Shown: positions 962 to 56,735, counted from the first letter of the stretch. The stretch: 64,000 bases of DNA from Halarcobacter sp. (GCA_048571215.1 CP182352.1:3550514-3614513); one strand, 5' to 3'. The notes: a model not told the origin generated them from the letters alone. Translations and numbers: made by a program.

Positions 962-2293
962 ATGAAAAGAGTTAAGTTTTTACTGATAACAATTTTATGT
1001 GTATTTACTGTAGGCTGTGCTGATAAGGGTGAAAAACTTCTTACTGAAATAAAGCCAATGGATAGAGAAAATATAATTCAAAAATCTACAATTCATGATG
1101 CAGTTAGAATAAATGATTTAAAGTTAGTTGATTATTTCATAAAAAGTGGTACAGATATTAATACAAAAGATAAATTTGGTTATACCCCTTTACATCTTGC
1201 TGCAAGATTTAATCACCTAGATATCGCAAAACTACTGATAAAAAATGGTGCAGATATAAACACACAAGATAAATATTTTGATACTCCACTTATAGACTCA
1301 ACAAGAAATGGTTATTCTGCAATGTCTGAATTACTTATTTGCAATGGTGCTAAAAGAGATATGGTAGATAAATATAAAATGACCCCTTCTGATTATGCAT
1401 TAAGAGCAAATGATACAAGATTATCAAAGCTTTTAAAACTTAAAGACCTAAGTGGATATTGTCAAAATAAGATAAAAAAAGAGAAAAAAATTGAAGTTGA
1501 GAAAGATAATAACTCAAATGAAAATGGTACTTCGATAAATATTGATGATCATGCAATCATAAATCAAAGTAAACCCCTAATTTGTGGTGATATTATTGAC
1601 CCTACGGTTCTTCAAATTCAAGTTTCACTTGATGAAGGGAAAACTGTATATGATGCAAATTTAGATAATGAAAACAAAAGATGGTGTGCAAAAATACCTA
1701 CTAAGCTTGAAGCAGGTGATTATAATATCGCTGCAATATCTATAAACAAATTTAATAAAATGAGTAGAGTAGATGATGATTTTAAAATCGAGTTTTCTTC
1801 TAAACTTTTTGATTCTTTGAAAAATGAGTTTAAAGATGATTTTAAAAAATGGAATTTAGTATTATTAGAAGATAATAATATTTTAAGATTCAAAAACCCT
1901 TCATCTATGTTTTCAAGGGGACGAGATAATATAAGTGAAAAATATCAAAAGATATTTAATGACTTTTTCCCAAGATATATAAAGATTATAGAAAAACATA
2001 AAAATGAGATTAAATCTATTTTTGTTGAGGGACATACCTCTTCAAGATATAGAACTGCAAAAACAAAAGAGGAAAAGTTTGAAAAAAATAGAATACTTTC
2101 TCAAAAAAGAGCAAATGAAGTTTTATCATTTTTAAAAAATATTAATGATTCAAGGGTGCACGAAAATTTAGGCTTAATAGATGAACTTTTCACAGCAAAG
2201 GGGATGTCTTCATCACAATTAATTTATAATGAAGATGGAAGTGAAAATATTGAAGCTTCAAGAAGAGTTGAATTTAAAATAGAATTAAAATAG
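962..2293 (+). CDS. Lipoprotein with ankyrin repeats, Ig-like segment and C-terminal OmpA/MotB-like peptidoglycan-binding domain
   Basis: Lipobox VFTVGC; GYTPLHLAA ankyrin motif; VEGHTSS...NRILSQKRA...RRVEF OmpA_C signature. Paralog at 34578. Confidence 0.85.
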   Translation: MKRVKFLLITILCVFTVGCADKGEKLLTEIKPMDRENIIQKSTIHDAVRINDLKLVDYFIKSGTDINTKDKFGYTPLHLAARFNHLDIAKLLIKNGADINTQDKYFDTPLIDSTRNGYSAMSELLICNGAKRDMVDKYKMTPSDYALRANDTRLSKLLKLKDLSGYCQNKIKKEKKIEVEKDNNSNENGTSINIDDHAIINQSKPLICGDIIDPTVLQIQVSLDEGKTVYDANLDNENKRWCAKIPTKLEAGDYNIAAISINKFNKMSRVDDDFKIEFSSKLFDSLKNEFKDDFKKWNLVLLEDNNILRFKNPSSMFSRGRDNISEKYQKIFNDFFPRYIKIIEKHKNEIKSIFVEGHTSSRYRTAKTKEEKFEKNRILSQKRANEVLSFLKNINDSRVHENLGLIDELFTAKGMSSSQLIYNEDGSENIEASRRVEFKIELK

Positions 2294-2308
2294 ATAAGGT
2301 CTTATTAT

Positions 2309-5300
2309 ATGGGAAAAGAGGTAGGGTACATAAAAGAGATTATTTTAAAAGTAAGGGAATCCCTATCTTTTGGAAGCACTTTTTCAATATCAAATCAAGA
2401 ACAATTGGCTTATAATCCAAAAATATCTCAAGTTTATATAACTTTATTTCAAGAGGGATTAAAGCCAATACGTTGGGGTTCAAGAAAAAAAACACTTGAA
2501 GAGTCAATTCAAAGAATTATTTTTAAGCTTAAAACTAATTCTAATTTTTATAATTTTAATATAAGTGAAAATACAAAATGTAGAATTTTGTTTGAGATGG
2601 TTACTAAAGAGTATCCTTGTAATATTAGAAATTTAACTACAATGAATATGGATTCGCCAAATAGATTTGAATCAGGAGTAAATGGTTTAAAGTATAAATA
2701 TAATGCACAAACAAGATTTTTTATGCCAACTGATGGATATACAAAATCGATTATGAGTGTAAATCAGCTTTTGAATTATTTATCAAAACAGTGTGGGATA
2801 TCAAAAAAAACAAATAAGATTAGTGAACGGGTTCATTTAATGAGAAGAGAGCCAATTGAGTACACTTTTATAGAATCTATAGCCTTTATAACTTATGGTG
2901 ACGAAGTGTTAAAACTTGAAAGAGGCTATCCTTTACCTATTGATTTTAATAAAGATATAATTTATGACAAGATGATGAAAAGTGTTGATTGGTTAATAAA
3001 AAATATGAATAATGATGGTAGTTTTTTATACTATTATGATCCATATAAAGACACAATTGTAGATGATATGCATCCTAAGATGATAAACCCTTTATATAAC
3101 AATATATTAAGACATAGTGGAGGAACAATCTCTTTATTAAGAGCTTATGAATTAAGTGATAATAAAATTTATTTACAAAAAGCAAAAGAGTCTATAGAGT
3201 TTTTAATAACTACATTTAAAGAACATCAATATAATAATCAGTATGCTTGTTTCCCATTTTTTAATAAAAAATCAAAATTAGGTGGTGCAGGGATTGGTTT
3301 AGTAGCAATGATGCACTATTATATGCATACAAAAGATGAAAGTTATAGAAAATATTTAGATGGTCTTGTAAGACATATTTTAAGTAGAGTTGATGAAAGT
3401 GGAGAGCTAATTGGTTATTATATTCATCCCCAATTTAATGAGGGAAAACCTTTAATAAATCCAAGTGATGAAGTTAAGAAAAATTTATTTTCTTTCTATT
3501 ATCCTGGGGAAGCACTTTTAGGTCTTGCTTTATATTATCTTTATATTGATAACATTGATGAAGAGTTGAAGAGTGATATAAAAGAAAAGAGTGAAAAAGC
3601 CTTAGACTTTTTAGTTGATATTAGACCTATAAAATATGATTATATGTTTGATACACTACCCGCTGATGCTTGGCTTATGCAAGCGATTGAAGAGTGGGTT
3701 AAAGTTGATGGTTTAAAAAAACAAAGCTATATTGATTTTGTTTTTAATGATACTAAGCAGATGTTTGAACATATGTATAAAGAAGAGAACACTTTAGCAA
3801 CAAATAAAGACTATATAGGTGGATTTTATTATGAATATGGTGATCATGTTTATCATGATGCATCGAGATGTGAAGGGGTTGTTAGCGCCTACTATTTAGC
3901 AAAATATTTAAAAGATGAAAATAAAGCTTCTTGGATAATGGAAAATATGATCTTAAGTGCAAAGGGTTTAATGAAAACATTTCATGATGAAAAATCTGTT
4001 TATGCCCATATAAATCCAGAAAAAGCGCTTCATAGTTTTAGATTTAAACTCACAAGACAGTGGGTTAGGGTTGATTCAGTTCAACACGCTTCATGTTTTT
4101 TTGCTAGATTAATCCCTGTTTTTGATGACAAAAAAAAATTAGATAATAATATATTAAATAAATATGAGATTGTAGATACTATTGATAAAGCAGGGTATAG
4201 TACCGTGTATCTAGTAAAAGACAAGTCATCAAAGCTTTTTGCTATGAAGAAAATAGAACAAACCAGATATTTAAGATTAATAGAAAATGAGATTAAATTT
4301 TTAAGAGTTTTAAATGAATTTAACAGTTTAAAATTTATTGAAGTTATAAAAAATGGTGAAGAGCTTTATTTAATATTTGATTATGCAGAAGCTGGAAATT
4401 TAAAAAAACATGTTGAAAAAAATGCAGTTTTATCAGATGAAGAAACTTTTGAGTATTTGAAGCAGATGTTAGAAGTTTTGAATTTTATTAATCAAAAAGG
4501 GATTTTGCATTTAGATTTGAAACCTGCAAATACCTTAATTTATAATAAAAAGTTTATTTTGGCTGATTGGGGTAATGCGGAAAAAACAAGAGTATCAAAA
4601 AGTGTACATCTAAAAGGAAATCCAATCTATATTGCTCCAGAGTTTTATTGGGGGGAAAGAACTATCTCCTCAGAGATTTATTCTTTAGGTTGCTCTTTAT
4701 ATTTTTTATTAACAGGTAAACATATTTACAGTTTACGAAATAGATATTCATTACTTCAAAAGATATATTCAAGTTTATATTTTCATGCAGATTTATCTGA
4801 AATAAAATCAAATAAGATGAAATATATTTTGGGTAGAATGTTAGAAAAAGAGCCTCAAAAAAGAATCGGTTTAGATGAATTAAATAAAGAGTTAAAAAAA
4901 GATGAAAGTGCTTTTGAAGATTTTTTATATATAAAATATAAAAATGAACAAGTAGATTTTTCAGATGAGGAAAAACTTTATGATAAAATGTTAAAAGATA
5001 ATATTCCTTTTTTATTTAATGAAAAAGGCAGATTGTTTATAAAACAAGGTGAATTTCAAAAAGCTTATGAGATGTTTGAAAAAGGTGCAAAGGCGGGATA
5101 TGTAAATGCACAATTAAATCTTGCATTGATGCATTATAATAAAAAATATGAGATCCTAGATTTAAAAAAGGCATTTTATTGGATAGAAAAAGCTTCACAA
5201 GTTGAATATGACAAGGCTCAATATTTTATGGGAATATTTTACGAAAATGGTCTATATGTAGATAAAGATTTAGAAAAAGCTATTTTTTGGTTTAAAAAAT

Positions 5301-5377
5301 CTGCACGAAATGCATATAGAAAAGCTTATACAAAACTGGATAAGTACAATATTAAATTGGAGGTAAATTTAAAATGA
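2309..5377 (+). CDS. Multidomain protein: AMMECR1-like + alpha-helical (six-hairpin-like) domain + Hanks-type Ser/Thr kinase + Sel1 repeats
   Basis: VYITLF, GVNGL and FFMP are AMMECR1-like. Helical region has YNNILRH, YYPGEALLGL and RVDSVQH. Kinase from about 4160 has AMKK, HLDLKPAN, DWG and YIAPE. Sel1 motifs: AQLNLALMH, AFYWIEKA, AQYFMGIFY, AIFWFKKSA. Confidence 0.75.
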   Translation: MGKEVGYIKEIILKVRESLSFGSTFSISNQEQLAYNPKISQVYITLFQEGLKPIRWGSRKKTLEESIQRIIFKLKTNSNFYNFNISENTKCRILFEMVTKEYPCNIRNLTTMNMDSPNRFESGVNGLKYKYNAQTRFFMPTDGYTKSIMSVNQLLNYLSKQCGISKKTNKISERVHLMRREPIEYTFIESIAFITYGDEVLKLERGYPLPIDFNKDIIYDKMMKSVDWLIKNMNNDGSFLYYYDPYKDTIVDDMHPKMINPLYNNILRHSGGTISLLRAYELSDNKIYLQKAKESIEFLITTFKEHQYNNQYACFPFFNKKSKLGGAGIGLVAMMHYYMHTKDESYRKYLDGLVRHILSRVDESGELIGYYIHPQFNEGKPLINPSDEVKKNLFSFYYPGEALLGLALYYLYIDNIDEELKSDIKEKSEKALDFLVDIRPIKYDYMFDTLPADAWLMQAIEEWVKVDGLKKQSYIDFVFNDTKQMFEHMYKEENTLATNKDYIGGFYYEYGDHVYHDASRCEGVVSAYYLAKYLKDENKASWIMENMILSAKGLMKTFHDEKSVYAHINPEKALHSFRFKLTRQWVRVDSVQHASCFFARLIPVFDDKKKLDNNILNKYEIVDTIDKAGYSTVYLVKDKSSKLFAMKKIEQTRYLRLIENEIKFLRVLNEFNSLKFIEVIKNGEELYLIFDYAEAGNLKKHVEKNAVLSDEETFEYLKQMLEVLNFINQKGILHLDLKPANTLIYNKKFILADWGNAEKTRVSKSVHLKGNPIYIAPEFYWGERTISSEIYSLGCSLYFLLTGKHIYSLRNRYSLLQKIYSSLYFHADLSEIKSNKMKYILGRMLEKEPQKRIGLDELNKELKKDESAFEDFLYIKYKNEQVDFSDEEKLYDKMLKDNIPFLFNEKGRLFIKQGEFQKAYEMFEKGAKAGYVNAQLNLALMHYNKKYEILDLKKAFYWIEKASQVEYDKAQYFMGIFYENGLYVDKDLEKAIFWFKKSARNAYRKAYTKLDKYNIKLEVNLK

Positions 5378-6339
5378 AAACTTTTTTTTTAATTCTATTA
5401 TTAACTATTTCTTTAAATGCAGGATGGAAAACACAAAGGGAAAATCTTGATAAGGTTTATATTTTAGGAGATTTTAGAGTTTTTTATACTTTAAAAGGAA
5501 AGGATGCCCTTCCTAGAAAAAATAGAGTGGATTTAAATAAAAACTCTATTCCTGATTATGTAGAAAATATTGCACAAAGATTAAATGTAACAAAAGAACT
5601 TTATACAAAAATATTGGGGTTTCAAGATCCTCTAAAATCAAAAAGATATAGAGGGGTAAAATATATTGATATACATATTTTAAATTCAAAACATAGTTCA
5701 TCAGGAGATGCTGTTGTAACTTTTAACTATAAAATTTTAGATAAAGAAGATGAAGTTATAAGTATGAAAATAAGAAACAATCTTGATAAAGATACTTTAA
5801 CTCCTTCCCATGAATATTTTCACTTGCTTCAAAATAGTTATAGTATGTTTAAAAATAGATGGTATACAGAAGGTACTGCAAGATGGTCTGAAAGAGTATT
5901 TAAAAAAGGTACTGGTAAAAGAGGAATATTACCCCAAAATTCAAGATCTTTAGATGTATTATTAGATATGACATATGATGCAAAGGGATTTTGGAGAAAA
6001 TTAGCTTACCTTTGTGATACAAATAATGGGAGTTTTGTAAATAGTCTAAATCTTAAAACAGATGTACCAAATTATCCAAACTTGATAGAAGACAGAAGGA
6101 TTTATGGTTATGAATTTATAAGAGTCTTTTTAGAAAATTTGGACAAACAAGATAATATTGTTTCTAAAAAAAGAGGTTATGGTGAGTTTGATTGGAGTGA
6201 AAAAAATCAAAAATATAATGAAGACAACAACAAGTATATTTTAAAAGCTGTAGTTGATACTATAAATACAGTTTGTCCAAAAACAAATCAAGAGATAAAC
6301 AATTTTAAAATTGTTGCAAAAGATTATATTAGAAGATAA
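5374..6339 (+). CDS. Secreted putative zinc metallopeptidase (zincin)
   Basis: Signal peptide MKTFFLILLLTISLNA; HEYFH motif followed by WYTEGTA (gluzincin-like third ligand); DLNKNSIPD Ca-loop-like motif; overlaps the upstream stop. Confidence 0.65.
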   Translation: MKTFFLILLLTISLNAGWKTQRENLDKVYILGDFRVFYTLKGKDALPRKNRVDLNKNSIPDYVENIAQRLNVTKELYTKILGFQDPLKSKRYRGVKYIDIHILNSKHSSSGDAVVTFNYKILDKEDEVISMKIRNNLDKDTLTPSHEYFHLLQNSYSMFKNRWYTEGTARWSERVFKKGTGKRGILPQNSRSLDVLLDMTYDAKGFWRKLAYLCDTNNGSFVNSLNLKTDVPNYPNLIEDRRIYGYEFIRVFLENLDKQDNIVSKKRGYGEFDWSEKNQKYNEDNNKYILKAVVDTINTVCPKTNQEINNFKIVAKDYIRR

Positions 6340-8741
6340 TGGAAAATAAATTACTATTTTCATTAAAAGAGATTGAATCTATTACAGGTGGTAAATGGGT
6401 TAATTTTGATGAAAAATTAGTTATAGATGAGTTTGTCCATCTACTACCACATATAAAAGACGGGGATCTTTTTATTGTACATTATGCAAATTGGTATAAT
6501 AAAAAAACAGATAATGAAAAGGATATTCCAAGAGCTATTAAAAAAGGTGCTCGTGCTTTAATGGTTCAAAAACAAACTGATATATCAAATTTATCTATGC
6601 CTGTTTTAGTAGTAGATGACACTTATTATGCCTTAAAAAATTTAGCTTTGTATGCATCCGAAAAAGCAAGTTCAAAACGAGTTGTTATCACAGGAAGTTA
6701 TGGAAAAACAGGTTTCAAAAATCACTTATATCATTTGATAAAAGATAAAACAAAAGTATTTGCAAGACTTAGTAGTTCAAATAGAGTTGCTTCAACCTAT
6801 GGAAACTTAGCTTCCCTAAAAAAAGATACAGAAGTTTTATTAGTTGAAATCCCTATTAGTACTAGAAATAAAACACAAAGACGAGCAGGTTATGTTAGAC
6901 CTGATATTTGTGTTATAACTTCAATTGGGCATGAACATATAGAAAGACATGCTAGTGTAAATAATATTATAAAAAAGAAGTGTTCTATTGCTGGAACTTT
7001 GCCAGAAGAAGGAAAAATAATTGTACCTAGTGATGGAGAATATAGTGATCTTATAAAAAAAGAGTTAAGAAAATATGAAGATATAGAGGTTTTAACTTTT
7101 GGATATAAAGATAATTGTAATGCTCAGTTATTAAGTGTATGGTACGAGAATTATAGATATAAGGTGATTGCTAGAATTGAAGAGGAACTTGTGCAATATG
7201 AAGTTCCTTTTGTAGATGATCATGCACCTCTTAGTTCAATATGTGAATTATTGTGTATAAAACACTTAGGTTTTGATATATATGAATGTGCAAAAAATTA
7301 TAAAAATATTAAAAATTTTAGAAGTAGTGGGAATTTATATAAATTAGAATATAAAGAAAAAACCTTTTATCTGTATGACCATAGTAGAAGGGGTGGAGTA
7401 GAAGGGTACCGTTCTTTTTTGAAAACAATTAAAAAGATTAATCCTAAGGGAAAAGGAAGAAAAATATTTGTTACTTCTGAGTTTGTAGATATTCAAGATG
7501 GTGAAGAGAAGTTTATAGATAAAAATGAGTTTAAACAATTGATTGAAGAAGCATCAATTGATCAGTTTTATACAGTAGAAAATTTTAAAGCTGTTCATGA
7601 AGATTTAATAAGTGATAAAAAAAAGTGGATACAACACTCTTTAAAAGTTGAAGATTTAAGAGAAAATTTTCTTAATAATATTCATGAGGGAGATGTTATT
7701 TGTATAAAAGCTATATTTGAAAGCTCTCTTCAGCTACTTAGTAAAGATATTTTACACAATTCAGAAATATTAAACTCTCAGCAAGAATATAATACAAAGG
7801 TTGATTTATTAAAAAACTGTAGGATAATTGATACAAAATATATGGAAAGATTTTATTCTATAATGGACAATGCAAAAAAAGAGAATTGGGTTAATTATTT
7901 TCCTTTTTTATATACCTTCTCTGCCTCAAAAAGTAGAAAAATTTTACTAAATTTTGAAGATGATGTAATGAGTGTTTATTTTTTAAGACATCTAAACAGT
8001 AGAAGAAGAGAACCTTTTTTACAATTGTATTTTATACCTATACCTTTTAGTTCTCAAAAGTTAAAAAAAGCATTAACCTTAGTTAAAGAGTTTAATCATG
8101 CATCTTCAAATACAATTCTTTGGTGTGATGCAGAGGATATAAAAAGAGTTAGAGAAAATAAAGAATTTGATAAGGTAATAAAATTTAGATATAAGGAGTC
8201 TGAGTTTATATATTCTCCACAAAATTATGAAACTTTATCAGGTAGTAAATACAAATATTTAAGACGACAAATAGGATGGATAAATGCTTTAAAAGATGTA
8301 AAAGTAACCTCTTATAAAAAAGAGCATTTAAAAGACTGTTTATCTTTATATGATGATTGGAAAAAAACTCAAGGTCTTAAATATGAATCTATAGAAGATG
8401 AATCTTATACAAAACTTTGTCTTTATCATAGTTTTGATTTTCCTAAAGAGATATTAGATGGAATAGTGGTCTTAATAGATAATCAGGTTAAATCTTTTGC
8501 TTTTTATGGAAAAATCACAAATGAAATATCAAATATGTTTATTGCAAAAAGTGACCATAGTATAAGAGGTTTGCAAGTTTTTACAAATTATCAAATATTA
8601 TTAAGATTAGAAGATTACAAATATGCAAATGCTTCAGGAGGAGATTTAAGTAAAGGTTTATACGAATCCAAAAAAAAATTCAGACCTTCAAAAATGCATA
8701 AAATTTATAAAGGGGCTGTTAAATTTAGTTTTTTTAGATAA
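6339..8741 (+). CDS. MurF-like Mur ligase fused to a C-terminal DUF2156 (aminoacyl-tRNA-dependent transferase-like GNAT) domain
   Basis: P-loop ITGSYGKTG and PDICVITSIGHEH. C-terminal part from about 7800 has EFIYS, LSGSKYKYLR, AKSD, YAN and GLYESKKKFRP, resembling DUF2156. Confidence 0.75.
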   Translation: MENKLLFSLKEIESITGGKWVNFDEKLVIDEFVHLLPHIKDGDLFIVHYANWYNKKTDNEKDIPRAIKKGARALMVQKQTDISNLSMPVLVVDDTYYALKNLALYASEKASSKRVVITGSYGKTGFKNHLYHLIKDKTKVFARLSSSNRVASTYGNLASLKKDTEVLLVEIPISTRNKTQRRAGYVRPDICVITSIGHEHIERHASVNNIIKKKCSIAGTLPEEGKIIVPSDGEYSDLIKKELRKYEDIEVLTFGYKDNCNAQLLSVWYENYRYKVIARIEEELVQYEVPFVDDHAPLSSICELLCIKHLGFDIYECAKNYKNIKNFRSSGNLYKLEYKEKTFYLYDHSRRGGVEGYRSFLKTIKKINPKGKGRKIFVTSEFVDIQDGEEKFIDKNEFKQLIEEASIDQFYTVENFKAVHEDLISDKKKWIQHSLKVEDLRENFLNNIHEGDVICIKAIFESSLQLLSKDILHNSEILNSQQEYNTKVDLLKNCRIIDTKYMERFYSIMDNAKKENWVNYFPFLYTFSASKSRKILLNFEDDVMSVYFLRHLNSRRREPFLQLYFIPIPFSSQKLKKALTLVKEFNHASSNTILWCDAEDIKRVRENKEFDKVIKFRYKESEFIYSPQNYETLSGSKYKYLRRQIGWINALKDVKVTSYKKEHLKDCLSLYDDWKKTQGLKYESIEDESYTKLCLYHSFDFPKEILDGIVVLIDNQVKSFAFYGKITNEISNMFIAKSDHSIRGLQVFTNYQILLRLEDYKYANASGGDLSKGLYESKKKFRPSKMHKIYKGAVKFSFFR

Positions 8742-8769
8742 TATTTAAATATTAAATAAGAGGATATGT

Positions 8770-10218: not shown

Positions 10219-10236
10219 AATAGATGTGGAATTAAG

Positions 10237-10992: not shown

Positions 10993-11069
10993 GGATTTGA
11001 AATGAAATATTTTAAGCTAATATAGGGAATTTTTTGGTATTATTATTGGCAAAAGAGGGATATTAAAAT

Positions 11070-12773: not shown

Positions 12774-12797
12774 GTAAGAAAGGATAAAATAAAAATT

Positions 12798-13748: not shown

Positions 13749-13754
13749 TCAAAC

Positions 13755-15434: not shown

Positions 15435-15468
15435 GTAAATCAAGAAGATAAAAAAGGAGAACTGTAAT

Positions 15469-17274: not shown

Positions 17275-17305
17275 AAATTATTAAAATTTTGCTAAAGGTT
17301 AATCA

Positions 17306-19823: not shown

Positions 19824-19830
19824 TTAAAAA

Positions 19831-19851
19831 GCAACTTTTAGGCAACTTTTA
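19831..19851 (+). promoter_or_regulatory. Tandem direct repeat GCAACTTTTA x2 (11-bp period), candidate OmpR-family regulator site
   Basis: GCAACTTTTA-G-GCAACTTTTA directly upstream of TATAAT hexamers and the AAGGA RBS of the giant gene. Confidence 0.5.
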
Positions 19852-19896
19852 TAATTTATAATTAGAAAGATAAGAGTCTATAGTAAGGAATACAAG

Positions 19897-27588: not shown

Positions 27589-27595
27589 AAAAACT

Positions 27596-27628
27596 ATATA
27601 AGATAGCATTTCGCTATCTTATATTTTA
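27596..27628 (+). terminator. Hairpin/terminator after the giant gene
   Basis: ATATAAGATAGC-ATTTC-GCTATCTTATAT followed by Ts. Confidence 0.6.
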
Positions 27629-27640
27629 TATAGGTTTAAT

Positions 27641-28453: not shown

Positions 28454-29129
28454 GTTGGTATCCTACACTAGAAATATTTTTTATGGAATCTTTTCCAATT
28501 TTATTTCTTAATTTATTCATTAAAGATTTAAATGCAGATTCTGTAGAGCTATAACTATCTTCCCAGACATGACATTGAATCTCCTCTTTAGAAACAACTC
28601 TATTTTTATTTTCATACAAGTATTCAAGTAATAGTATCTCTTTTGCTGTAATGTCTATTATTTTAGTATCTATTGATAATATCTTTTTATTAAAATTATA
28701 TTCTATTTTATTATTGAACTTTATTATAAAATCATTATTCTCAAAGTATTCATTTCCTGCATTTAGTAATGCTTTTTTAAGTTTATTAAAATCAATGGGT
28801 TTTGTTAAATAATCCACAAGTTTTAATCTTGCTGCTTTTAATAAAAACTTAGTATCGGTATGTGCCGTTAAGAGTATCACTGGTATAGTGATTTTTTCTT
28901 TTCTTAAATATTCTACAAAATCTAAACCTGTTTTTCCAGGCATACTTATATCACTTAATATCACATGCACACAATTAGATGAAAAAACCTTTAAGGCATC
29001 ATCTACACATGATACAGAGTAGACATTTTTAAATATATAACCTAATATTTTAGTTATATTTTCTCTTATTTGATTTTCATCTTCTAGATACAAAATATTT
29101 AATTGTTTTAAAGAATTATCTTTTACCAT
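28437..29129 (-). CDS. OmpR-family response regulator
   Basis: ILYLEDE, SDISMP (phosphoacceptor Asp), LTAH, YLTKP; winged helix LRNKIGKDSIKNISSVGY. Confidence 0.9.
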   Translation of the reverse strand: MVKDNSLKQLNILYLEDENQIRENITKILGYIFKNVYSVSCVDDALKVFSSNCVHVILSDISMPGKTGLDFVEYLRKEKITIPVILLTAHTDTKFLLKAARLKLVDYLTKPIDFNKLKKALLNAGNEYFENNDFIIKFNNKIEYNFNKKILSIDTKIIDITAKEILLLEYLYENKNRVVSKEEIQCHVWEDSYSSTESAFKSLMNKLRNKIGKDSIKNISSVGYQLITYD

Positions 29130-29271
29130 AAAGTATTATACCAAAAATGTATAAATAAATTACTAAAATTTATTTTAGTCGCTAAAAAGTTACTATAAAA
29201 TAATTTTTTAAGTAACTTGTAAACTTAATTAAAGTATTATGTTTTTACAATCAAACAATATGGATAAAACT

Positions 29272-31080
29272 ATGAAAACAATAATCGAAAGAATTCTCAT
29301 TTTAAGTCTCTTTGTAACATATGCTAGTTCAACTTCTTTAAAAGATTCAGTTATAAGTACTTTAGGTAAAAACCCTGATGTATTATCTGAAAAATTAAAT
29401 AGGGATGCTTATCAAAAGTATGTTGATGAAGAAAAAGGTGATTATTATCCAACACTAGATTTTCAAGGATATGTTGAAAAATCTAGAACAAGAAATGATA
29501 GAGATAATGTTGCTACAGATCCAAGCAGTGCAAAAAAAGATGGATGGCATGCTGCATTAACTTTTGAACAGATCATTTATGATGGTGGACAAACACCAAG
29601 TCAAGTAGAACAGTATAAACATACTTATCTATCAAATAAGTACAGAAGTTTAATTAGAGTTGATGAAATTGTAAGGTCAACTATTGATAATTATCTTAAT
29701 GCAGTTAAATATCAAGAGTTAATTGATCTTTCTCAATTAAATCTACAGGTACATGAAGATTATTTAGTGATTGCACAAGAGAAAGAAAATATAAGTGGAG
29801 AAATCTTAGAGACTTATCAAGTAAACTCTAAAAAACATTATGTGATAGACAGATATTTGGAACAAAAAATAAATGAAGATGAGGCAAGAAATATTTTTGC
29901 AGAAAAGTCAGGTATTGAAAATCCAGGAAATATTTGTAGACCTACAATTAATGAAGCTTTTATACCTAGTACTTTAGAAGAAGCAATAGAAAAAGCAGTT
30001 AGAAATAGTCCAAAAATATTAAGAGCTATTGAAGATATTAAGGAGCAAAGGGAAAATGTAGTACAAGCTAATGCTACATATCTACCTACTTTAAGATTCC
30101 AATGGGTAGGAAGTTTAGATGATGATTTATCAAATGCAGAAAATGGTAGACAAGATATATCTAGATTTAGAATTATTATGGATTGGAATCTATTTGAAGG
30201 TGGAAAAAATAAAATTGCAAAAGAAAGAGAAGTTCTTTTTTTACAAGAAAAACAAAAAATTCTTGATACAACAGTAAATCAAGTTATTCAAGAGGTTACC
30301 ACAAGTTATAAAAAGTATTTTTCTTTTAAAGAAAAAATAGAAAATTATAAAAAATATGTTAAAGATAACTATTATATTAAAGAGGTATATTTTAAACAAT
30401 TAACAGATGGTACTAGAACTTTTATTGATATACTAGATGCAGAATCAGAATATTATAGATCATCATTAGATTTAATAGATTTTGAATATCAGTTATATGG
30501 ATATTATTATGATATTTTAAATCATAGTGGTCTATTGAGTACAAGCATTTTGATGTCTGAAAATCAAGTATGTAAAGAATTCAAATTATCAAAATATGAA
30601 AGTAGATTTAAACAAAAAGTAAAAGATAATAATAGTGAATTAAATGACTTAGATTTACTCCAAGAGCTTGGTCAAGCACAAAGTAAAACAAAAACTGAGG
30701 AAGGAAATACAAAAGAAGTAGATATGGAGATTGATAATTTAATCAATGGTACCTCTGTAGGGGAGAACAATGAAACTAAAAATCCAGATGAAAATGCAGT
30801 AAAAAATTTACCTACAGGAAAGTATACTATTAAGCTTGCGACTTTTGATCAAAACTATGATATTAATTCATTTATAGAAAAAAATAAACTAAATCCAGAT
30901 GATGTATATGCATACAGTACTAACAATAATATAAATGTTATTTATGGGCACTTTAATAAGCTTGGTGATGCTAAAGCACTATTAAGCAGTTTAGATAAAA
31001 GTTTAATTAATAGTAATGTATATATTGATATTCTTGAAAAACATAGAAAACTTTATCAAAAATATAAAACAAATAATTAG
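29272..31080 (+). CDS. TolC-family T1SS outer membrane protein (LapE-like) with C-terminal SPOR-like domain
   Basis: Signal peptide; YYPTLD, YLPTL, WNLFEGG and GTRTFIDILDAE TolC motifs; tail YTIKLATF...VIYGHF. Start uncertain (29239, 29260 or 29272). Confidence 0.85.
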   Translation: MKTIIERILILSLFVTYASSTSLKDSVISTLGKNPDVLSEKLNRDAYQKYVDEEKGDYYPTLDFQGYVEKSRTRNDRDNVATDPSSAKKDGWHAALTFEQIIYDGGQTPSQVEQYKHTYLSNKYRSLIRVDEIVRSTIDNYLNAVKYQELIDLSQLNLQVHEDYLVIAQEKENISGEILETYQVNSKKHYVIDRYLEQKINEDEARNIFAEKSGIENPGNICRPTINEAFIPSTLEEAIEKAVRNSPKILRAIEDIKEQRENVVQANATYLPTLRFQWVGSLDDDLSNAENGRQDISRFRIIMDWNLFEGGKNKIAKEREVLFLQEKQKILDTTVNQVIQEVTTSYKKYFSFKEKIENYKKYVKDNYYIKEVYFKQLTDGTRTFIDILDAESEYYRSSLDLIDFEYQLYGYYYDILNHSGLLSTSILMSENQVCKEFKLSKYESRFKQKVKDNNSELNDLDLLQELGQAQSKTKTEEGNTKEVDMEIDNLINGTSVGENNETKNPDENAVKNLPTGKYTIKLATFDQNYDINSFIEKNKLNPDDVYAYSTNNNINVIYGHFNKLGDAKALLSSLDKSLINSNVYIDILEKHRKLYQKYKTNN

Positions 31081-31091
31081 TTAGTGAAGAT

Positions 31092-33221
31092 ATGGAAGAA
31101 TTAGAAAAAACAGTTAATAGAAAAGTAGATACTCTTTTAGAGTCTCTATTTTTTATTGCTAAATATTATCAAAGAGCGACTTCTAAAGAGTCATTACTTA
31201 ATGGCTTGTCAATTTTTGGAGATGTAATGGATGTTGATAATTTTATTCAAGCATCAAAAAAGGTTGCATTAATCTCAAAATTTGTTAAAAGAGATAATAT
31301 TGAAGATATAAATAAATTAACATTTCCAGCTGTAATTTTCACAACAAAATACGACTCTATGATTTTACTTGACTACGATGAAGAAGGGAATAGTGCAAAT
31401 TTGATTATTCCTGAATTGAGTTTAGGTGAAACTACTATGCCATTAGATGAACTTAATTCACTTTATACAGGCAGGGTAATTATTATTAAGCCTGCATATA
31501 ATTTTGAAAATCGTTCTTCAAGAGAAGTATCTATCTTAAATCCAAAAAAATGGTTTTGGGATACAATGAAGAAAAGTAAAGAGTTCTACGCAAGAGTTAT
31601 TGTTGCAACTATTTTTATCAATATCTTTGTGATAGCTTTACCTTTATTTATAATGAATGTCTATGATAGAATTTTACCAAACAATGCTATTGAATCCTTA
31701 TGGGCATTAGCAATTGGTGTATTTGTTGTAATGATATTTGATTTTATTCTTAAAATTATTAGGTCGTATTACATTGGTAAAGCTTCAAAAAAAGCAGATA
31801 TCATTATGTCAAATAAAATATTTGATCATCTTTTAAATTTAAGGCTTGATTCTAGACCTTCATCTACTGGTATGTTTGTTAATAGATTACAATCTTTTGA
31901 ATCTATAAAAGAGTTTTTTACAACAGCAACAATTACTACTTTAGTGGATATTCCATTTTTATTTATTTTTGTAGCAATTATTTTTTATATTGGTGGACCT
32001 TTAGGATGGATTCCTGTAATTACAATAATTATAGCTCTAATTAGTTCTTTTTTTATGCAAAAGATAATTAAAAAAAATGTTACAAATACAGTTAATGAGG
32101 AACAATTAAAACAAACAACATTAAATGAAACTGTAACAGGATTAGAAATAATAAAAAGTGTTCGCGGTCAAAATAGAATGAAAACACACTGGGATAAATC
32201 ATTAAGTCAAACAGCATATTATGGAGAAAAAACACAACTTTTCTCACAAGTTGCAAGTGGCCTTACCGATTTTATAACAAAGTTTTCAAATGTAGTTATT
32301 ATTGTATTTGGAGTTTTTTTAGCTTCAAGTGGTGATATGACGATGGGTGCAATCGTAGCTTCAATGATGTTAAACAGAAGAGCAGTTGCTCCTGCATCAA
32401 AGATTGTGAATCTAGTTATAAAATATGATAGAGCAATGATTGCATTAAAAAATATTGATGACATTATGAGTTTAGATGTTGAAAAAGATCATAAAGTATA
32501 TTTAAGTAGACCCCATTTAATTGGAGACATAGAGTTTCAAGATGTAAGTTTTTCTTATAAAAAACAAAATTATGAAGTATTAAAAAATATAAATTTAAAG
32601 ATAAATCAAGGTGAAAAAGTAGCGATTTTAGGAAAAATTGGTTCAGGAAAGTCAACACTAATTAAGATGATTCAAAATCTTTATGTTCCAACAAAAGGTT
32701 CAATTTTAATTGATAATACAGATGTTAGACAAATTGACCCAGTAGATTTAAGAAAGGCTATAGGTGTTGTTCCTCAAGAATCATTTTTATTTATGGGAAG
32801 TGTAAAAGATAATATTACAATAGGAGATCCTTTTGCAACAGATGAGGAGATATTAAAAGCTTCAAAAATTGCTGGAGTTCATGATTTCTTAGGTAAACAT
32901 GAAGCGGGTTATGATTTTCTTGTAGGTGAAAGAGGAGAAGGATTAAGTGGTGGTGAAATTCAATCTATTACTTTAGCAAGAGCACTTGTAAGTAATCCAG
33001 ATTTTATGATATTTGATGAGCCTACAAACTCAATGGATAAACAAACAGAAAGAGATTTTTTAAAAAAATTAAAACTTATTTTAGATAAACAAACTGTGAT
33101 TATTGTTACCCATAAGTTATCTTTATTGTCTTTGGTTGATAGGGTAATAGTTTTAGATAATGGTAAAATAGTAGCTGATGGTCCAAAAGAAAAAGTATTT
33201 TCTAAAGCGAATAAAGAGTAG
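31092..33221 (+). CDS. T1SS permease/ATPase (LapB/LssB-like) with C39-like N-terminal domain
   Basis: PLFIMNVYDRILPN, Walker A GKIGSGKS, LSGG signature, FDEPT. Confidence 0.92.
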   Translation: MEELEKTVNRKVDTLLESLFFIAKYYQRATSKESLLNGLSIFGDVMDVDNFIQASKKVALISKFVKRDNIEDINKLTFPAVIFTTKYDSMILLDYDEEGNSANLIIPELSLGETTMPLDELNSLYTGRVIIIKPAYNFENRSSREVSILNPKKWFWDTMKKSKEFYARVIVATIFINIFVIALPLFIMNVYDRILPNNAIESLWALAIGVFVVMIFDFILKIIRSYYIGKASKKADIIMSNKIFDHLLNLRLDSRPSSTGMFVNRLQSFESIKEFFTTATITTLVDIPFLFIFVAIIFYIGGPLGWIPVITIIIALISSFFMQKIIKKNVTNTVNEEQLKQTTLNETVTGLEIIKSVRGQNRMKTHWDKSLSQTAYYGEKTQLFSQVASGLTDFITKFSNVVIIVFGVFLASSGDMTMGAIVASMMLNRRAVAPASKIVNLVIKYDRAMIALKNIDDIMSLDVEKDHKVYLSRPHLIGDIEFQDVSFSYKKQNYEVLKNINLKINQGEKVAILGKIGSGKSTLIKMIQNLYVPTKGSILIDNTDVRQIDPVDLRKAIGVVPQESFLFMGSVKDNITIGDPFATDEEILKASKIAGVHDFLGKHEAGYDFLVGERGEGLSGGEIQSITLARALVSNPDFMIFDEPTNSMDKQTERDFLKKLKLILDKQTVIIVTHKLSLLSLVDRVIVLDNGKIVADGPKEKVFSKANKE

Positions 33222-33223
33222 TT

Positions 33224-34567
33224 ATGAAAAAGAATAATGATATAAATTTTGTGCATAACCTTTATGGTCAAGCAAATGAAAAAGCTTCATCAAAAATAGA
33301 TTTTTTATTTATATTTATTTTATGCTTTTTAGTAGCTGCCATTGTTTGGTCAAGTATAGCTCAAATAGATGAATTAGCAAGGGGTCAAGGTAAAGTAATC
33401 CCTTCAAGTAAAATCCAAACTATTCAATCTTTAGATGGAGGATTAGTTGAAGAGATTTTAGTTAAATCTGGTGATCAAGTAAAAAAAGGGCAACCTCTTA
33501 TGAAAATTGATACAACAAGATTTCTAGCTTCTTTAGAGGAAAATCAAGAGAGTTACTATCAATGGCTAGCTATGAGAGTTAGACTTGAAAAAGAATCTGT
33601 TGTTGATATTGATAAGAAAATTGAAAAGTTAGTTTTCCCTGATGATATTAAAAAAATTGCAAAAGATTATATTAAATCAGAAACATTTTTATATATTAAT
33701 AGGGTTAATGAGTTGAAAAGTTCTATAAATGTTTTTGATTCACAACTAAATCAAAGATATCAAGAGATAAAAGAGATCAATCAAGAGATTTCTAAATTAA
33801 AAACTAGATTAAAACTTGTAACTATTGAGAGAAAAACTATAAAAGATTTAGTTAGAACAGGGGTTAAGTCAAAAGTTGAATTAATTGCAATTGAAAAAGA
33901 ATATCAACAAATTGTCGGAGATTTAAAATCAGCAGAATTATCAATTCCTAAATCTAGATATGCAATAAATGAGATAAAAAACAAAAGATTAGAGAGGATA
34001 ACTCAATTTAGAACAGAAGCATCAAAAGAGTTACAAAGAATTTCTGTTGAAATTAAAAAAGCAGAAGCAAGAATGATTTCAGCTACAGATAAAGTTAATA
34101 AAACGGTTATAAAATCAAGTGTTAATGGAATTGTAAAAGAGATTTATATGAATACAATTGGTGGAGTTGTTCAATCAGGAGCAAGTTTATTAGATATTAT
34201 TCCTAATAGTGACAATCTACTTGTTGAAGCAAAAATAGACCCTAAAGATATTGCTTTTATAAGTCCCATGCAAAAAGCTATAGTTAAAATTTCAGCTTAT
34301 GATTATTCAATATATGGAGGTCTAGATGGAAAAATTGTTGAGATATCTGCAGATAGTATCATTGATAAAGAGAGTAAAGATGGTAAAAGTTACTATAAAA
34401 TTATAGTTCAAACTGAAAAGAATTATTTGGAGAAAAATGGAAATAAATTGCCAATTATTCCTGGGATGATAGCCAATGTTGATGTAATTACAGGTAAGAA
34501 AACTATTATGGATTACATCTTAAAACCAATACTTAAAATAAAACAAAATTCATTACATGAAAAATAA
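33224..34567 (+). CDS. HlyD-family T1SS membrane fusion protein (LapC-like)
   Basis: N-terminal TM; ARGQGKVIPS, AYDYSIYGGLDG, PGM...GKKTIMDYILKP. Confidence 0.92.
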   Translation: MKKNNDINFVHNLYGQANEKASSKIDFLFIFILCFLVAAIVWSSIAQIDELARGQGKVIPSSKIQTIQSLDGGLVEEILVKSGDQVKKGQPLMKIDTTRFLASLEENQESYYQWLAMRVRLEKESVVDIDKKIEKLVFPDDIKKIAKDYIKSETFLYINRVNELKSSINVFDSQLNQRYQEIKEINQEISKLKTRLKLVTIERKTIKDLVRTGVKSKVELIAIEKEYQQIVGDLKSAELSIPKSRYAINEIKNKRLERITQFRTEASKELQRISVEIKKAEARMISATDKVNKTVIKSSVNGIVKEIYMNTIGGVVQSGASLLDIIPNSDNLLVEAKIDPKDIAFISPMQKAIVKISAYDYSIYGGLDGKIVEISADSIIDKESKDGKSYYKIIVQTEKNYLEKNGNKLPIIPGMIANVDVITGKKTIMDYILKPILKIKQNSLHEK

Positions 34568-34577
34568 AGGAAATAAC

Positions 34578-35915
34578 ATGAAAAAATTAATTTTTATAAC
34601 TTTTACATCTTTATTATTATTAACTGGATGTGCTCAAAAGAGTGAAGTTACTAATAGTGGAAATAGTGAAGTAAAAAAAGAGCAGATGAAATCAATGCAG
34701 AGTGATGGTGATTTTATCAATGAGTTAGCATTGCATGATGCAGTTAGAGCAAAAGACTTTGATATAGTAAAAGATTTAGTTAACAATGGTATGCAGGTTG
34801 ATACGAAAGATAAATATGGATATACACCTTTACATTTAGCTGCAAGATTAAATCAATATGATATTGCAGAGTTTTTAATAAATAAAGGTGCAAATGTCAA
34901 TAACGTAGACGTTTTTAAAGATACGCCACTTTTAGATTCCACTAGAAATGGTACAAATGAAATGTCAAGATTGCTTTTATGTAATGGTGCATCTCCTGAT
35001 GTATATGATAGACATGATATGAAACCTATACATAATGCATCTAAGAATAATGATTTGTATATTGTTGAAATGATTGAAAGTGATGATATTACTAAAATGT
35101 GTGAAAAATTAGATATCACTTTAGATGAATATATTGAAGATACCAATCAAATTTGTGGAAAAATTGTAAAAGGTTATGCGACAGATATTGATTTAGCTAT
35201 TACCGATGAATCAAGTGATTCAGTAAAACCTTTTGGAAAATACAAAGCTGAATTTGATAGTGAAAAATATTGTGCTACTTTAGATAAAAAGCCAGATTTA
35301 ACAAAAAGTTATATTGTTACAGCAGTTGGTTCAAACTCAATTGATAAAGATATAGAGATCGCAAATTTAGGTGACTTAGTTAAAAAAGAAGAACCAGTAA
35401 AATCTCCTTATATTTCAGGATTATATGAAGATTTAATGGCAGAATTTGGTCCTGATTTTGAACCATGGAATGCTCAGTTAGACAAAGATGGTTTGGTATT
35501 TAGATTTAAGAAACCAGAATTATTGTTTAGTCATGGTAGTTCAAATATTAAAAATAGTTACAAAAAGATTTTAGATGACTTTTTCCCAAGATATTTGAAG
35601 GTAATAGAAAAGTATAAAGATCAAATTAAAGATATCATAGTGGAAGGGCATACATCATCAGTATATGCAAGTGCAAAAACTCAAGCAGAAAAATATGCAA
35701 AAAATAAAATTTTATCTGAAAAAAGAGCAAAAAAAGTTTATGATTATACTTTATCTCAAGAAGGACCAATGACAAGTGAAAATAAAGACTGGTTATCTTC
35801 TCATTATAGTTATGAAGGTTTATCTTCAGATAATTTGATTTATGATGCTAATGGTAAGGAAGATGAAGCTTTATCTAGAAGAGTTGAATTTAGGATAAAT
35901 AAAATTGTAGAGTAA
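34578..35915 (+). CDS. Ankyrin repeat/OmpA-family lipoprotein, paralog of 962..2293
   Basis: AAGGA RBS then ATG at 34578; lipobox LLLTGC; GYTPLHLAAR; VEGHTSS...LSEKRA...RRVEF. Confidence 0.85.
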   Translation: MKKLIFITFTSLLLLTGCAQKSEVTNSGNSEVKKEQMKSMQSDGDFINELALHDAVRAKDFDIVKDLVNNGMQVDTKDKYGYTPLHLAARLNQYDIAEFLINKGANVNNVDVFKDTPLLDSTRNGTNEMSRLLLCNGASPDVYDRHDMKPIHNASKNNDLYIVEMIESDDITKMCEKLDITLDEYIEDTNQICGKIVKGYATDIDLAITDESSDSVKPFGKYKAEFDSEKYCATLDKKPDLTKSYIVTAVGSNSIDKDIEIANLGDLVKKEEPVKSPYISGLYEDLMAEFGPDFEPWNAQLDKDGLVFRFKKPELLFSHGSSNIKNSYKKILDDFFPRYLKVIEKYKDQIKDIIVEGHTSSVYASAKTQAEKYAKNKILSEKRAKKVYDYTLSQEGPMTSENKDWLSSHYSYEGLSSDNLIYDANGKEDEALSRRVEFRINKIVE

Positions 35916-35927
35916 TAAGGCTAAATT

Positions 35928-36683
35928 ATGAAAAATATATTAACATTTGTAGCAATTGTATTGCTGTGTGCTGGGTGTAGTTATAAAAATGATGCAACTA
36001 CTGTATCAGTGGCTAAAAAAGAAGGACTTATAAATAGAAATGGTGAGATTGAAGTTAAACCCATCTATAAAGATATGAGTTATCTAAAAGATTTTGATTC
36101 AAATGAGTATGAACATCCTCATTATATTAATTTACATTGGCTACATTTTGGAGATGATGAGTTTGCAGTAGTAAGAAATGTAGATGATAAGTATGGGATT
36201 ATTGGAAGAGATGGAAAATTAAAATTGAAGGCAATCTTTGATTCAATTGGAGAGTTCTTTAATGGCTATGCAAAAATTGAAGTTGATAAAAAGTTTGGAC
36301 TTATTAATGAAAAATTTGAAATAGTTGTTAAACCAATTTATGACGATGTCAGAAATGTCATAGATGGAAGTGTTATTGTAAAAAATTATGATAAAAATAA
36401 AAGAACAAAATATGGGTGTTTAAACTTAGATAATAAGTTAGTTGCTCCACTTGATTATGATATGATTTACTTATCAAATGAAAAAAGAATGAGAATTGTA
36501 AAAGATGGTAAATGGGGTTTTATGGATACAAAATGTAATGTTGTTGTAGACCCTATCTATACTTTTGCAGATGATTATTCAAAAGGGATTGCAAGAGTAA
36601 AAAAATCTGAGTTATGGACTTACCTTAACCTTGATGGTAAGGAATTGACCCGTAAAACTTTCGACTCTGCTGATAATTTTTAA
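35928..36683 (+). CDS. WG (KWG) repeat lipoprotein
   Basis: Lipobox LCAGC; repeats KYGIIG, KFGLIN, KYGCLN, KWGFMD with F.NG.A segments. Confidence 0.8.
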   Translation: MKNILTFVAIVLLCAGCSYKNDATTVSVAKKEGLINRNGEIEVKPIYKDMSYLKDFDSNEYEHPHYINLHWLHFGDDEFAVVRNVDDKYGIIGRDGKLKLKAIFDSIGEFFNGYAKIEVDKKFGLINEKFEIVVKPIYDDVRNVIDGSVIVKNYDKNKRTKYGCLNLDNKLVAPLDYDMIYLSNEKRMRIVKDGKWGFMDTKCNVVVDPIYTFADDYSKGIARVKKSELWTYLNLDGKELTRKTFDSADNF

Positions 36684-39625: not shown

Positions 39626-39653
39626 GTAAAATTACTCTTTTTTTTAAATTTTA

Positions 39654-39677: not shown

Positions 39678-39694
39678 TGATAAAAAGGAATGGG

Positions 39695-40948: not shown

Positions 40949-40959
40949 AAGGGAAAAAA

Positions 40960-56734: not shown

Positions 56735-56735
56735 A

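Follow-up and report, generated by a model that had tools for sequence, protein, structure and literature searches.

A modular gene cassette predicted to modify the aspartate-X repeat tract of a secreted adhesin in Halarcobacter sp.

The combination of a repeat-bearing surface adhesin with dedicated modifying enzymes is already known from staphylococci. According to the accessible parts of the respective reports, SdgA and SdgB coat a Ser-Asp stalk and shield it from proteases (PMC3794999), and in methicillin-resistant Staphylococcus aureus (MRSA) the gene of the 538-amino-acid protein GtfC follows pls, which encodes the repeat protein Pls (PMC5230774). GtfC is required for full (COL) or for any (1061) GtfD-dependent glycosylation of Pls. 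GtfC alone yields no glycosylated Pls, is not a CAZy glycosyltransferase and owes its assignment to BLAST matches to like-named entries; Pls made without gtfC is still secreted and anchored. As far as the accessible text goes, repeat peptides of Pls carry N-acetylhexosamine (HexNAc) only, and they are resistant to pronase. Here we analyze a gene run at positions 962-36683 of a 64,000-nucleotide stretch from Halarcobacter sp. (GCA_048571215.1 CP182352.1:3550514-3614513, hereafter the window), in which a set of enzymes lies directly upstream of a type I secretion system (T1SS) adhesin with a long Asp-Thr/Ser tract.

The same pairing of enzymes and tract recurs in many unrelated bacteria and points to an undescribed and probably sugar-free chemical coating of surface proteins. 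It is very likely that the cassette modifies the tract, and we consider it fairly likely that it does so as a modular, post-translational system of three layers acting on Asp-X tracts in secreted proteins of the cell surface. The system is real and widespread, and its chemistry may be categorically new.

The gene run and its aspartate tract

The adhesin comprises 2563 amino acids, of which residues 182-2021 form the tract. It contains 920 Asp, 592 Thr, 324 Ser, 2 Ala, 1 Cys and 1 Val, in agreement with an initial annotation of the window that had put it at about 920 Asp and about 920 Thr/Ser side chains. Synonymous codons are used in mixture, and no second (D[TS])6+ tract exists anywhere in the 3.6-Mb genome.

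The core gene of the system is located at 2309-5377. The initial annotation had called it only a kinase fusion; a Ser/Thr kinase is indeed present at residues 620-860, and what had been missed is an AMMECR1-like domain with an (alpha/alpha)6 barrel at residues 1-610. This barrel protein is the most conserved component of the system. In a structure model with a predicted local distance difference test (pLDDT) score of 96, the N-terminal domain matches the AMMECR1 proteins 1ZQ7/1VAJ and is followed by a six-hairpin barrel matching cellobiose 2-epimerase (Z 29.2, root-mean-square deviation 3.2, 331 aligned residues) and GH76 (Z 28.1). The top matches of the barrel are cellobiose 2-epimerases, GH76, mannose isomerase and GH105, all within about 3 Z units, and the rank of cellobiose 2-epimerase is tied with GH76/GH105; C5-epim_C matches 43-49% of members in two Atlas clusters. 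The pocket residues Y241, N265, R268, H269, K323, Y398, E401, D453, W455, E522, R587, D589 and H593 are kept down to 22% identity.

The features of the run are as follows (PLP, pyridoxal phosphate).

962-2293, plus strand: ankyrin-Ig-OmpA lipoprotein, first gene of the run (Pfam Ank_2, Big_13, OmpA)
2309-5377, plus strand: core gene with AMMECR1-like domain and (alpha/alpha)6 barrel, Ser/Thr kinase and Sel1 repeat (model, folds, co-occurrence)
5374-6339, plus strand: putative HExxH metallopeptidase with hydrophobic N-terminus (NCBIfam MXAN_6640_HExxH, E 3e-15, below cut-off)
6339-8741, plus strand: fusion of a MurF-like ligase and a DUF2156/aminoacyl-tRNA transferase-like domain (Pfam Mur_ligase_M, LPG_synthase_C; P-loop GSYGKT; PDB 2HQY)
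8770-10218, plus strand: MurF-like ligase 2 (Pfam, NCBIfam)
10237-10992, plus strand: BaxI-like membrane protein (Pfam BaxI_1)
11070-12773, plus strand: ATP-grasp ligase 1 with cyanophycin synthetase/GshF-like C-terminal domain (Pfam, NCBIfam)
12798-13748, plus strand: stand-alone AnkX-like Fic domain (PDB matches AnkX only, E 2e-27)
13755-15434, plus strand: ATP-grasp ligase 2, sharing 43% identity with ligase 1 (Pfam, NCBIfam)
15469-17274, plus strand: fusion of a PntC/LicC-like nucleotidyltransferase and a PLP enzyme (PDB 6OUX E 2e-51, 6PD1 E 2e-14, 1JYK E 4e-12)
17306-18757, plus strand: MurF-like ligase 3 (Pfam, NCBIfam)
18711-19823, plus strand: CapA/PGA_cap protein without signal peptide (Pfam PGA_cap; PDB matches are MslH entries)
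19897-27588, plus strand: T1SS-type adhesin with N-terminal domain, Asp-X tract and C-terminal GxGxD repeats
20440-25959, plus strand: Asp-Thr/Ser tract of 920 units, predicted acceptor (sequence count)
27641-28453, plus strand: histidine kinase (Pfam)
28437-29129, minus strand: response regulator, between adhesin and TolC (Pfam)
29239-34567, plus strand: T1SS with TolC, LssB-type ABC permease/ATPase and HlyD (NCBIfam type_I_sec_LssB, type_I_hlyD above cut-off)
34557-36683, plus strand: an ankyrin-OmpA and a WG-repeat lipoprotein, forming the conserved tail of the T1SS locus (Pfam)

All genes named in the initial annotation were recovered at their positions by sequence, Pfam and NCBIfam; the HExxH protein and the BaxI-like protein are additional. 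The co-oriented arrangement proposed there holds for 962-27588, where thirteen plus-strand genes are separated by gaps of -47 to +77 bases, but not throughout the part with histidine kinase, response regulator and T1SS that follows, since the response regulator is encoded on the minus strand. The first lipoprotein is a paralogue of that at 34557-35915; such genes also flank cassette-free T1SS loci, and it belongs with the T1SS locus rather than with the enzyme core. As noted before, no Pfam or NCBIfam match to a flippase or polymer exporter occurs in the run, nor to a glycosyltransferase in 962-36683, and sugar-nucleotide genes are absent from the run.

The genome (G000; G and L numbers denote genomes and loci) has a GC content of 28.5%, the window is its AT-rich end, and close matches bear Arcobacteraceae names. 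The public reads comprised four DNA runs of one study, three of them marked as possible source, and one RNA library. A DNA-run contig, possibly from the source strain, covers 962-20400 with zero differences; contigs of the RNA library are patchy (25 of 30 bins) and do not demonstrate transcription. A terminator-like hairpin at 755-789 lies ahead of the run, and a promoter scan was at chance level (134 compared to 144 in shuffles).

The N-terminal domain of the adhesin is family-wide, being present in 91 of 184 family genomes. Retention of the adhesin in the manner of LapA is conceivable: the LssB match is above cut-off, Peptidase_C93 (LapG-family) genes lie elsewhere in the genome, and an AAAAG motif in the adhesin N-terminus may correspond to the N-terminal di-alanine motif of LapA-type proteins. 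At the tract edges (window 25930-25990 and many relatives), the start often follows a (Glu)-Gly or Glu-Ser/Ala motif and the end is often Asp-Cys-Asp or Asp-Asp-Asp; these motifs are possibly start and stop marks.

Recurrence of barrel and tract

The pairing was followed in three lineage samples, namely 184 genomes of the Halarcobacter family, 251 of the Methylococcales (the order of G196) and 106 from the family of G184; the genomes on which the samples were centred had been chosen, and relatives are not independent of each other. Within the Halarcobacter family, the Fic gene was found in 8 genomes and the repeat pattern in 8, with both in 7, so that the tract is present in 7/8 Fic-bearing compared to 1/176 Fic-less genomes. 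Sorted by the barrel, the figures are 8/10 barrel-bearing genomes and 0/174 others, the two tract-less barrel genomes being fragmented. In G087, G100, G103, G105, G053 and G093 (in the last across a contig break), the gene of a tract-bearing adhesin is directly preceded by a cassette whose content varies, and close relatives of the adhesin that lack the tract also lack the cassette (G058, G055, G075, G085, G146). A genome-wide scan for Fic returned 60 loci; the tract occurs in 28/38 genomes with strong Fic matches (in 14 on the Fic contig) compared to 1/12 with weak ones. The neighbourhood test suggested in the initial annotation, which expected the enzymes to co-occur with repeat proteins, thus came out in favour of that expectation.

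In the Methylococcales sample, Fic was found in 3 genomes, all with a tract. The pattern was found in 21, as mixed-codon tracts in 10, as plain hexamer microsatellites in 10 and as one single match that was not seen. It is present in 9/13 barrel genomes compared to 12/238 others, most of those 12 being plain hexamer microsatellites, and a further barrel genome (G480) carries an (Asp-Ala)32 tract that is invisible to the pattern. In G243, G334 and G382, long tracts adjoin a 60%-identical copy of the window barrel, whereas genes for Fic, Mur and the donor are absent. The family of G184 showed the pattern in 8/10 barrel-bearing genomes and in 1/96 others, that one a microsatellite; a pure poly-Asp run lies beside the barrel in G680, and none was seen in G677. 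Barrel and coding Asp-X tract therefore occur together nearly always in the three lineage samples. Among 80 metagenome barrel loci, 21 have a tract within the available DNA, and in 3 more Asp alternates with mixed, often hydrophobic residues. In a 201-genome class sample, subjected to the barrel search alone, the barrel was found only in G000 and G053.

The smallest systems contain no Fic, Mur, kinase or T1SS. Long tracts occur with the barrel only, and Fic was therefore rejected as the core partner; likewise, the kinase was rejected as the essential hydroxyl modifier, being present in only 6/45 Fic loci, and is accessory. The core does not require hydroxyls, as shown by pure Asp-Ala and poly-Asp tracts. 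These tracts imply that Asp is the constant residue and X is free: the X position varies between loci among Thr, Ser, Ala and Asp, and Ala, Asp and hydrophobic residues are found there in Fic-less barrel loci. The combined Ser and Thr share is never below 0.64 in 21 Fic loci and below 0.5 in 8/35 Fic-less loci (a tally that left out G199, whose tract was lost from its joined sequence).

The proteins that host the tract elsewhere are unrelated: T1SS adhesins, two-partner/haemagglutinin-like passengers, lipoproteins, LPXTG proteins and a protein with a PEP-CTERM-like tail, where the family names for metagenome hosts were read from sequence motifs. Since tracts sit in non-homologous proteins, mere synteny was rejected as the cause of the pairing. 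Tracts of Fic genomes lie mostly behind a T1SS N-terminal module and once in a signal-peptide outer-membrane protein.

Several individual loci are worth recording. In a Listeria record (L374:5686-9560), the gene of an LPXTG protein with 146 units, mostly Asp-Ala, precedes a lone barrel gene, and these two genes form a minimal system. In G680 (L364:102-2456), the run of about 60 Asp lies in a T1SS-type protein, and the neighbouring barrel is shorter (387 amino acids). At L121:11151-12587, beside a stand-alone Fic gene, a 60-unit Asp-Ser/Thr tract is inserted close to the N-terminus of an outer-membrane-like protein with a signal peptide. The tract-bearing adhesin gene of G334 (L230:1739-4472) is split by two insertion-sequence-like genes, and in G103 (L014:199-10803) the adhesin frame ends early and its C-terminal part is a separate downstream open reading frame (ORF), owing to a frameshift or an assembly error. 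G088 was considered as a decayed cassette and rejected, as its barrel ORF is intact.

Among 124 distinct barrel proteins, 97 stand alone and the others are fused to Mur (10), Fic-Mur (7), kinase (6) or CapA (4). Such fusions tie the enzymes to one substrate. Used as a single query, the window barrel found nothing in PDB sequences or plasmids. A second, GtfC-like barrel subtype is present in 55 records of the plasmid collection; of nine records picked by hand so as to span organisms, eight adjoin a tract, which is mostly Asp-Ala in six. A hydrophobic N-terminus is present in 17 metagenome barrels; 12 of them have a visible tract neighbour, in each case a non-T1SS protein. Membrane anchoring of the barrel and Sec export of the substrate are only partly linked, however, given that anchored barrels fall into about two clades and that the L121 and staphylococcal barrels have no anchor.

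The staphylococcal barrels connect the family to Pls. They are 538 amino acids long, and their genes follow pls-like genes. Published GtfC primers map into two of these genes with 3-4 mismatches (shuffles 7-10) and an equal spacing of 390 bases, and the proteins so identified match the profile of the window family with E 1e-70. The motifs N-x-x-R-H, YY-x-GE, D-x-W and R-x-D-x-x-x-H are common to window and staphylococcal barrels, and the S. haemolyticus barrel is identical at 14/15 pocket positions. Judged by primers, length and position, GtfC appears to be a member of the barrel family. As GtfC is needed for full modification of Pls, there would then be genetic evidence that one family member acts on an Asp repeat, which makes the earlier statement that no such system had been described too strong. 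The effect of GtfC on Pls is apparently priming-like and mass-silent in the accessible data, and its assignment as a glycosyltransferase may be wrong. Two AMMECR1-barrel proteins (L369:11932-13548, L377:5803-7419) are labelled 'poly(glycerol-phosphate) alpha-glucosyltransferase' in the database.

Cassette enzymes, proposed chemistry and alternatives

Closer inspection of the Fic protein (316 amino acids, no ankyrin repeats) showed that Y34, F98, H220, D224, N226, R228 and D256 align to AnkX Y41, F107, H229, D233, N235, R237 and D265, residues described as serving the binding of cytidine diphosphate (CDP)-choline in flipped orientation and catalysis (PMC8605245, accessible part). It scores 112.6 bits compared to the cut-off of 1400 for the AnkX effector family (AnkX has about 940 amino acids). 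We predict that Fic transfers a phospho-aminoalcohol from a CDP donor. The intact residues and the supply of CDP-aminoalcohol that travels with Fic are in line with the initial interpretation. The fusion at 15469-17274 is predicted to make the donor, CDP-ethanolamine or a similar compound: its PLP half is closest to the Thr/Ser-phosphate decarboxylase-like 6OUX, an enzyme that decarboxylates phosphoserine, and its best NCBIfam match is the CobD model, below cut-off.

Gene content was surveyed in 45 Fic loci, many of them ended by contig breaks. Mur was present in 43, the nucleotidyltransferase in 38 and the barrel in 36; HExxH followed with 29, ATP-grasp with 22, DUF2156 with 11 and CapA with 8. 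Class V PLP enzymes occurred in 34 loci, class I/II PLP enzymes in 6, and phosphoenolpyruvate (PEP) mutase with phosphonopyruvate decarboxylase in 3. Fic, Mur and nucleotidyltransferase stay together while the donor module varies, and 39/47 Fic proteins are Fic-Mur fusions. Because PLP and phosphonate modules alternate among these loci, the amine donor appears to be swapped (aminoalcohol or aminoethylphosphonate (AEP) types), not lost. Phosphonate genes replace the aminoalcohol module in L018:2001-6232 (G053), L121:5045-7936 and L262:3-1663; the AEP transaminase of G053 is above cut-off, and these loci are candidates for phosphonate-modified proteins. Additionally, an exported family of about 390 amino acids with no Pfam match (L021:7809-8981 and relatives) occurs in 20/45 Fic loci, and most Fic-Mur fusions have an alpha/beta-hydrolase-like domain after Fic-Mur.

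MurF-like ligase 2 is 31-34% identical to the other two; the three form their own group far from housekeeping Mur enzymes and score below the TIGR01143 (peptidoglycan MurF) cut-off (121-184 bits compared to 288.6). The Mur-like M domain of cyanophycin synthetase CphA1 amidates Asp side chains of poly-Asp (PMC9262961, accessible part). For the CapA protein, the phosphoesterase label of the initial annotation is in line with the PGA_cap match, but the best solved-structure match is MslH, a peptide epimerase with the dyads His88/Asp91 and His295/Asp11 (PMC10406935, accessible part). His88, Asp91 and His295 align, yet they are also found in ordinary metallophosphoesterases, and the protein scores 45.7 bits compared to the MslH-type cut-off of 700. 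It may be a phosphoesterase or an MslH-like peptide epimerase. CapC has no Pfam or NCBIfam match in the run, and the N-terminus of CapA is not hydrophobic. The poly-gamma-glutamate capsule system CapBCA has the membrane subunit CapC and a membrane-anchored CapA.

Kinase, CapA and DUF2156 are accessory, as is the BaxI-like protein, relatives of which also adjoin barrel-only loci; the HExxH protein, probably exported, is a common accessory. Apart from the latter, the cassette enzymes have no hydrophobic N-termini, which fits action in the cytoplasm ahead of T1SS export.

We propose a division of labour for which the chances are about even; the reactions, their order, the length of the side chains and the biological role are what we infer from these components. 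In the first layer, the barrel would bind the tract and act on Asp, probably with no nucleotide cofactor and possibly with no change in mass. In the second, the Mur-like ligases would phosphorylate the side-chain carboxylates of Asp and attach amines. In the third, the nucleotidyltransferase-PLP fusion would make CDP-ethanolamine or a similar donor, from which Fic would place a phospho-aminoalcohol on Thr/Ser hydroxyls. ATP-grasp and DUF2156 enzymes could add amino acids to the new amines or to carboxylates, and CapA may trim phosphate or epimerize. Modification of the still unfolded chain would take place in the cytoplasm. The T1SS would then export the chain and hold it at the surface, where it would form a charged coat that resists proteases and varies between strains.

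For the barrel itself, the leading suggestions are epimerization of Asp to D-Asp, which is tentative, and isomerization to isoaspartate (isoAsp), which is less likely. They were ranked above a helper role, glycosyl transfer and other chemistry because the barrel is often the sole enzyme and its fold carries out acid-base chemistry beside carbonyls. A broader version, somewhat doubtful in our view, holds that the barrel works processively and without cofactor as an Asp epimerase or isomerase. Across hundreds of Asp-X units of a ribosomal surface protein, it would produce an alternating D/L (beta-helix-prone) or isoAsp backbone, a general platform for swappable decorators. From staphylococci to Planctomycetes-type loci, glycosyltransferase, Mur or Fic sets would build a protein-templated capsule on it, and the effector AnkX would have been recruited from housekeeping chemistry such as that of the biosynthetic Fic enzymes.

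Glycosyl transfer by the barrel, with a glycoprotein as the product, is very improbable. The fold is common among glycosidases, the database labels point that way and GtfC raises Pls glycosylation, but in the accessible part of that report (PMC5230774) GtfC alone gave no such product; moreover, Asp-Ala and poly-Asp tracts offer no hydroxyl acceptor, and the run has no sugar-nucleotide genes. Less improbable, and still unlikely, is that the barrel is a non-catalytic binder or chaperone that keeps poly(Asp-X) soluble and presents it to transferases (GtfD in MRSA; Mur and Fic here). This would account for the many fusions of the barrel to other enzymes and for the reduction or loss of GtfD-dependent glycosylation upon gtfC deletion, with no GtfC-specific mass reported in the accessible text. 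The barrel is, however, the sole candidate enzyme at the tract in G243, G334, G382, G725, G682, L278, L306, L334 and the Listeria record, its thirteen conserved pocket residues resemble an active site, and secretion and anchoring of Pls do not depend on gtfC.

Two further explanations concern the other enzymes, and we regard both as improbable to the same degree. Fic, Mur and ATP-grasp might build a separate phosphodiester-amide or poly-amino-acid polymer, a teichoic-acid-like or poly-gamma-glutamate-like capsule that the acidic adhesin merely partners. CapA and Mur-fold enzymes are folds of poly-gamma-glutamate synthesis, cassette content differs between close relatives as in capsule loci, some cassettes lie apart from the repeat gene, and three (L102, L123, L258) contain an ABC ATPase with a small partner gene. 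Amidation of a capsule through a PLP decarboxylase/aminotransferase and Cj1438C is described for Campylobacter jejuni (PMC12409886, accessible part). The run lacks matches to a polymer exporter or glycosyltransferase, though, Fic and Mur occur as fusions with the barrel, whose distribution follows that of the tract, and the hydroxyl content of the tract follows the presence of Fic. Alternatively, the chain might cross-link itself, either as a ladder in which Mur closes the amine of Fic-added phosphoethanolamine onto a neighbouring Asp or through graspetide-like Asp-Thr esters. Strict alternation places one carboxylate beside each hydroxyl, the Fic-Mur fusion is the usual form, and graspetide ligases make lactones and lactams (PMC8939145, accessible part). 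At barrel and Mur loci with pure Asp-Ala tracts and no Fic, on the other hand, Mur must accept an outside amine, and the window ATP-grasps are closest to the CphA/GshF models.

Other observations weigh against modification of the tract by the cassette as proposed here. No tract is visible in 10/38 strong-Fic genomes, and in 14 of the 28 that have both, none was visible on the Fic contig; assemblies break at repeats, yet G185 and G187 look truly unlinked. A barrel with no tract seen occurs in G115, G175, G323, G402, G481 and G677, and in one low-GC clade of 13 metagenome loci (L333, L335-L346) the barrel is intact while the available DNA shows no tract. One Myxococcales genome carries four barrel genes, none adjoining a tract. 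Related genomes are not independent, and Fisher values therefore overstate the association. The substrates of the barrel's fold relatives are sugars rather than peptides, passage of a heavily branched chain through TolC may not be possible, and the reactions of the window proteins are inferred from sequence.

If the three-layer system is correct, it would represent a widespread class of surface-protein modification, comprising amidated Asp, phospho-aminoalcohol or phosphonate esters and perhaps D-Asp/isoAsp, unreported on bacterial adhesins. It would offer a rationale for Asp-X low-complexity tracts, a non-effector setting for AnkX-type Fic chemistry and a testable substrate for a mis-named enzyme family that includes MRSA GtfC and adhesin-side genes in Listeria, Acinetobacter, Klebsiella and Agrobacterium records. 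Protein engineering would also gain useful tools in a processive enzyme that edits Asp and in Fic/Mur enzymes that decorate peptides.

The remainder of the window contains an arsenic-resistance cluster (38964-42316: ArsR, GGACT-like, ArsB, ArsC-like low-molecular-weight phosphatase, ArsP), a fusion of major facilitator superfamily, acyltransferase and AMP-binding domains (45445-48960), a nitrogen cluster (48973-57752: GlnD, two pairs of ammonium transporter and P-II, amidohydrolase) and the flagellar genes fliM, flgI, fliL and flgH (57762-63822).

Comparison with known systems

A literature search, with subscription papers outside it, returned no account of a layer composed of Fic, Mur and CDP donor, of Asp serving as acceptor or of the GtfC barrel fold. 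Partial resemblances are found in several systems, here as given in the accessible parts of the reports. An ATP-grasp enzyme is tied to surface-protein modification in the case of Klebsiella CfmP (bioRxiv 2025.10.03.680091), but this is a single gene of the TupA family, and the reported change is oxidation of FimA His11. The C. jejuni HS:2 capsule (Cj1436/Cj1437/Cj1438; PMC12409886) shares PLP enzymes that supply ethanolamine or serinol phosphate for a surface polymer; its acceptor, in contrast, is glucuronate in a polysaccharide, with neither cytidylylation nor Fic described. Like the window enzymes, CphA1 combines a Mur-like and an ATP-grasp part on poly-Asp, and the window ATP-grasps match the CphA model over about 260 amino acids. 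CphA1 is one polypeptide, with N, G and M domains, that makes its backbone non-ribosomally, whereas the window has a ribosomal backbone and separate genes, with 141 bits compared to a cut-off of 850.

With Legionella AnkX, the window Fic shares the Fic/CMP-binding domain and the residues for flipped CDP-X binding and catalysis. It differs in lacking ankyrin repeats, in not being an effector and in having its own CDP-aminoalcohol or phosphonate supply; proteins of this type are usually fused to Mur (stand-alone in the window), and the predicted target is the cell's own protein. SdgA and SdgB are likewise dedicated to a repeat stalk, but they are glycosyltransferases acting on Ser, and the run contains no homologue of them. 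The closest relative is pls-gtfC-gtfD of MRSA (Bleiziffer 2017), in which a surface protein with Ser/Ala-Asp repeats is followed by a barrel-family gene. The staphylococcal barrels are 22% identical to the window barrel, and the second layer there is a true glycosyltransferase, GtfD, which adds HexNAc. Finally, Pls is exported by Sec and sortase, whereas the window adhesin is exported by a T1SS and accompanied by the Mur, Fic, ATP-grasp and CDP-donor module.

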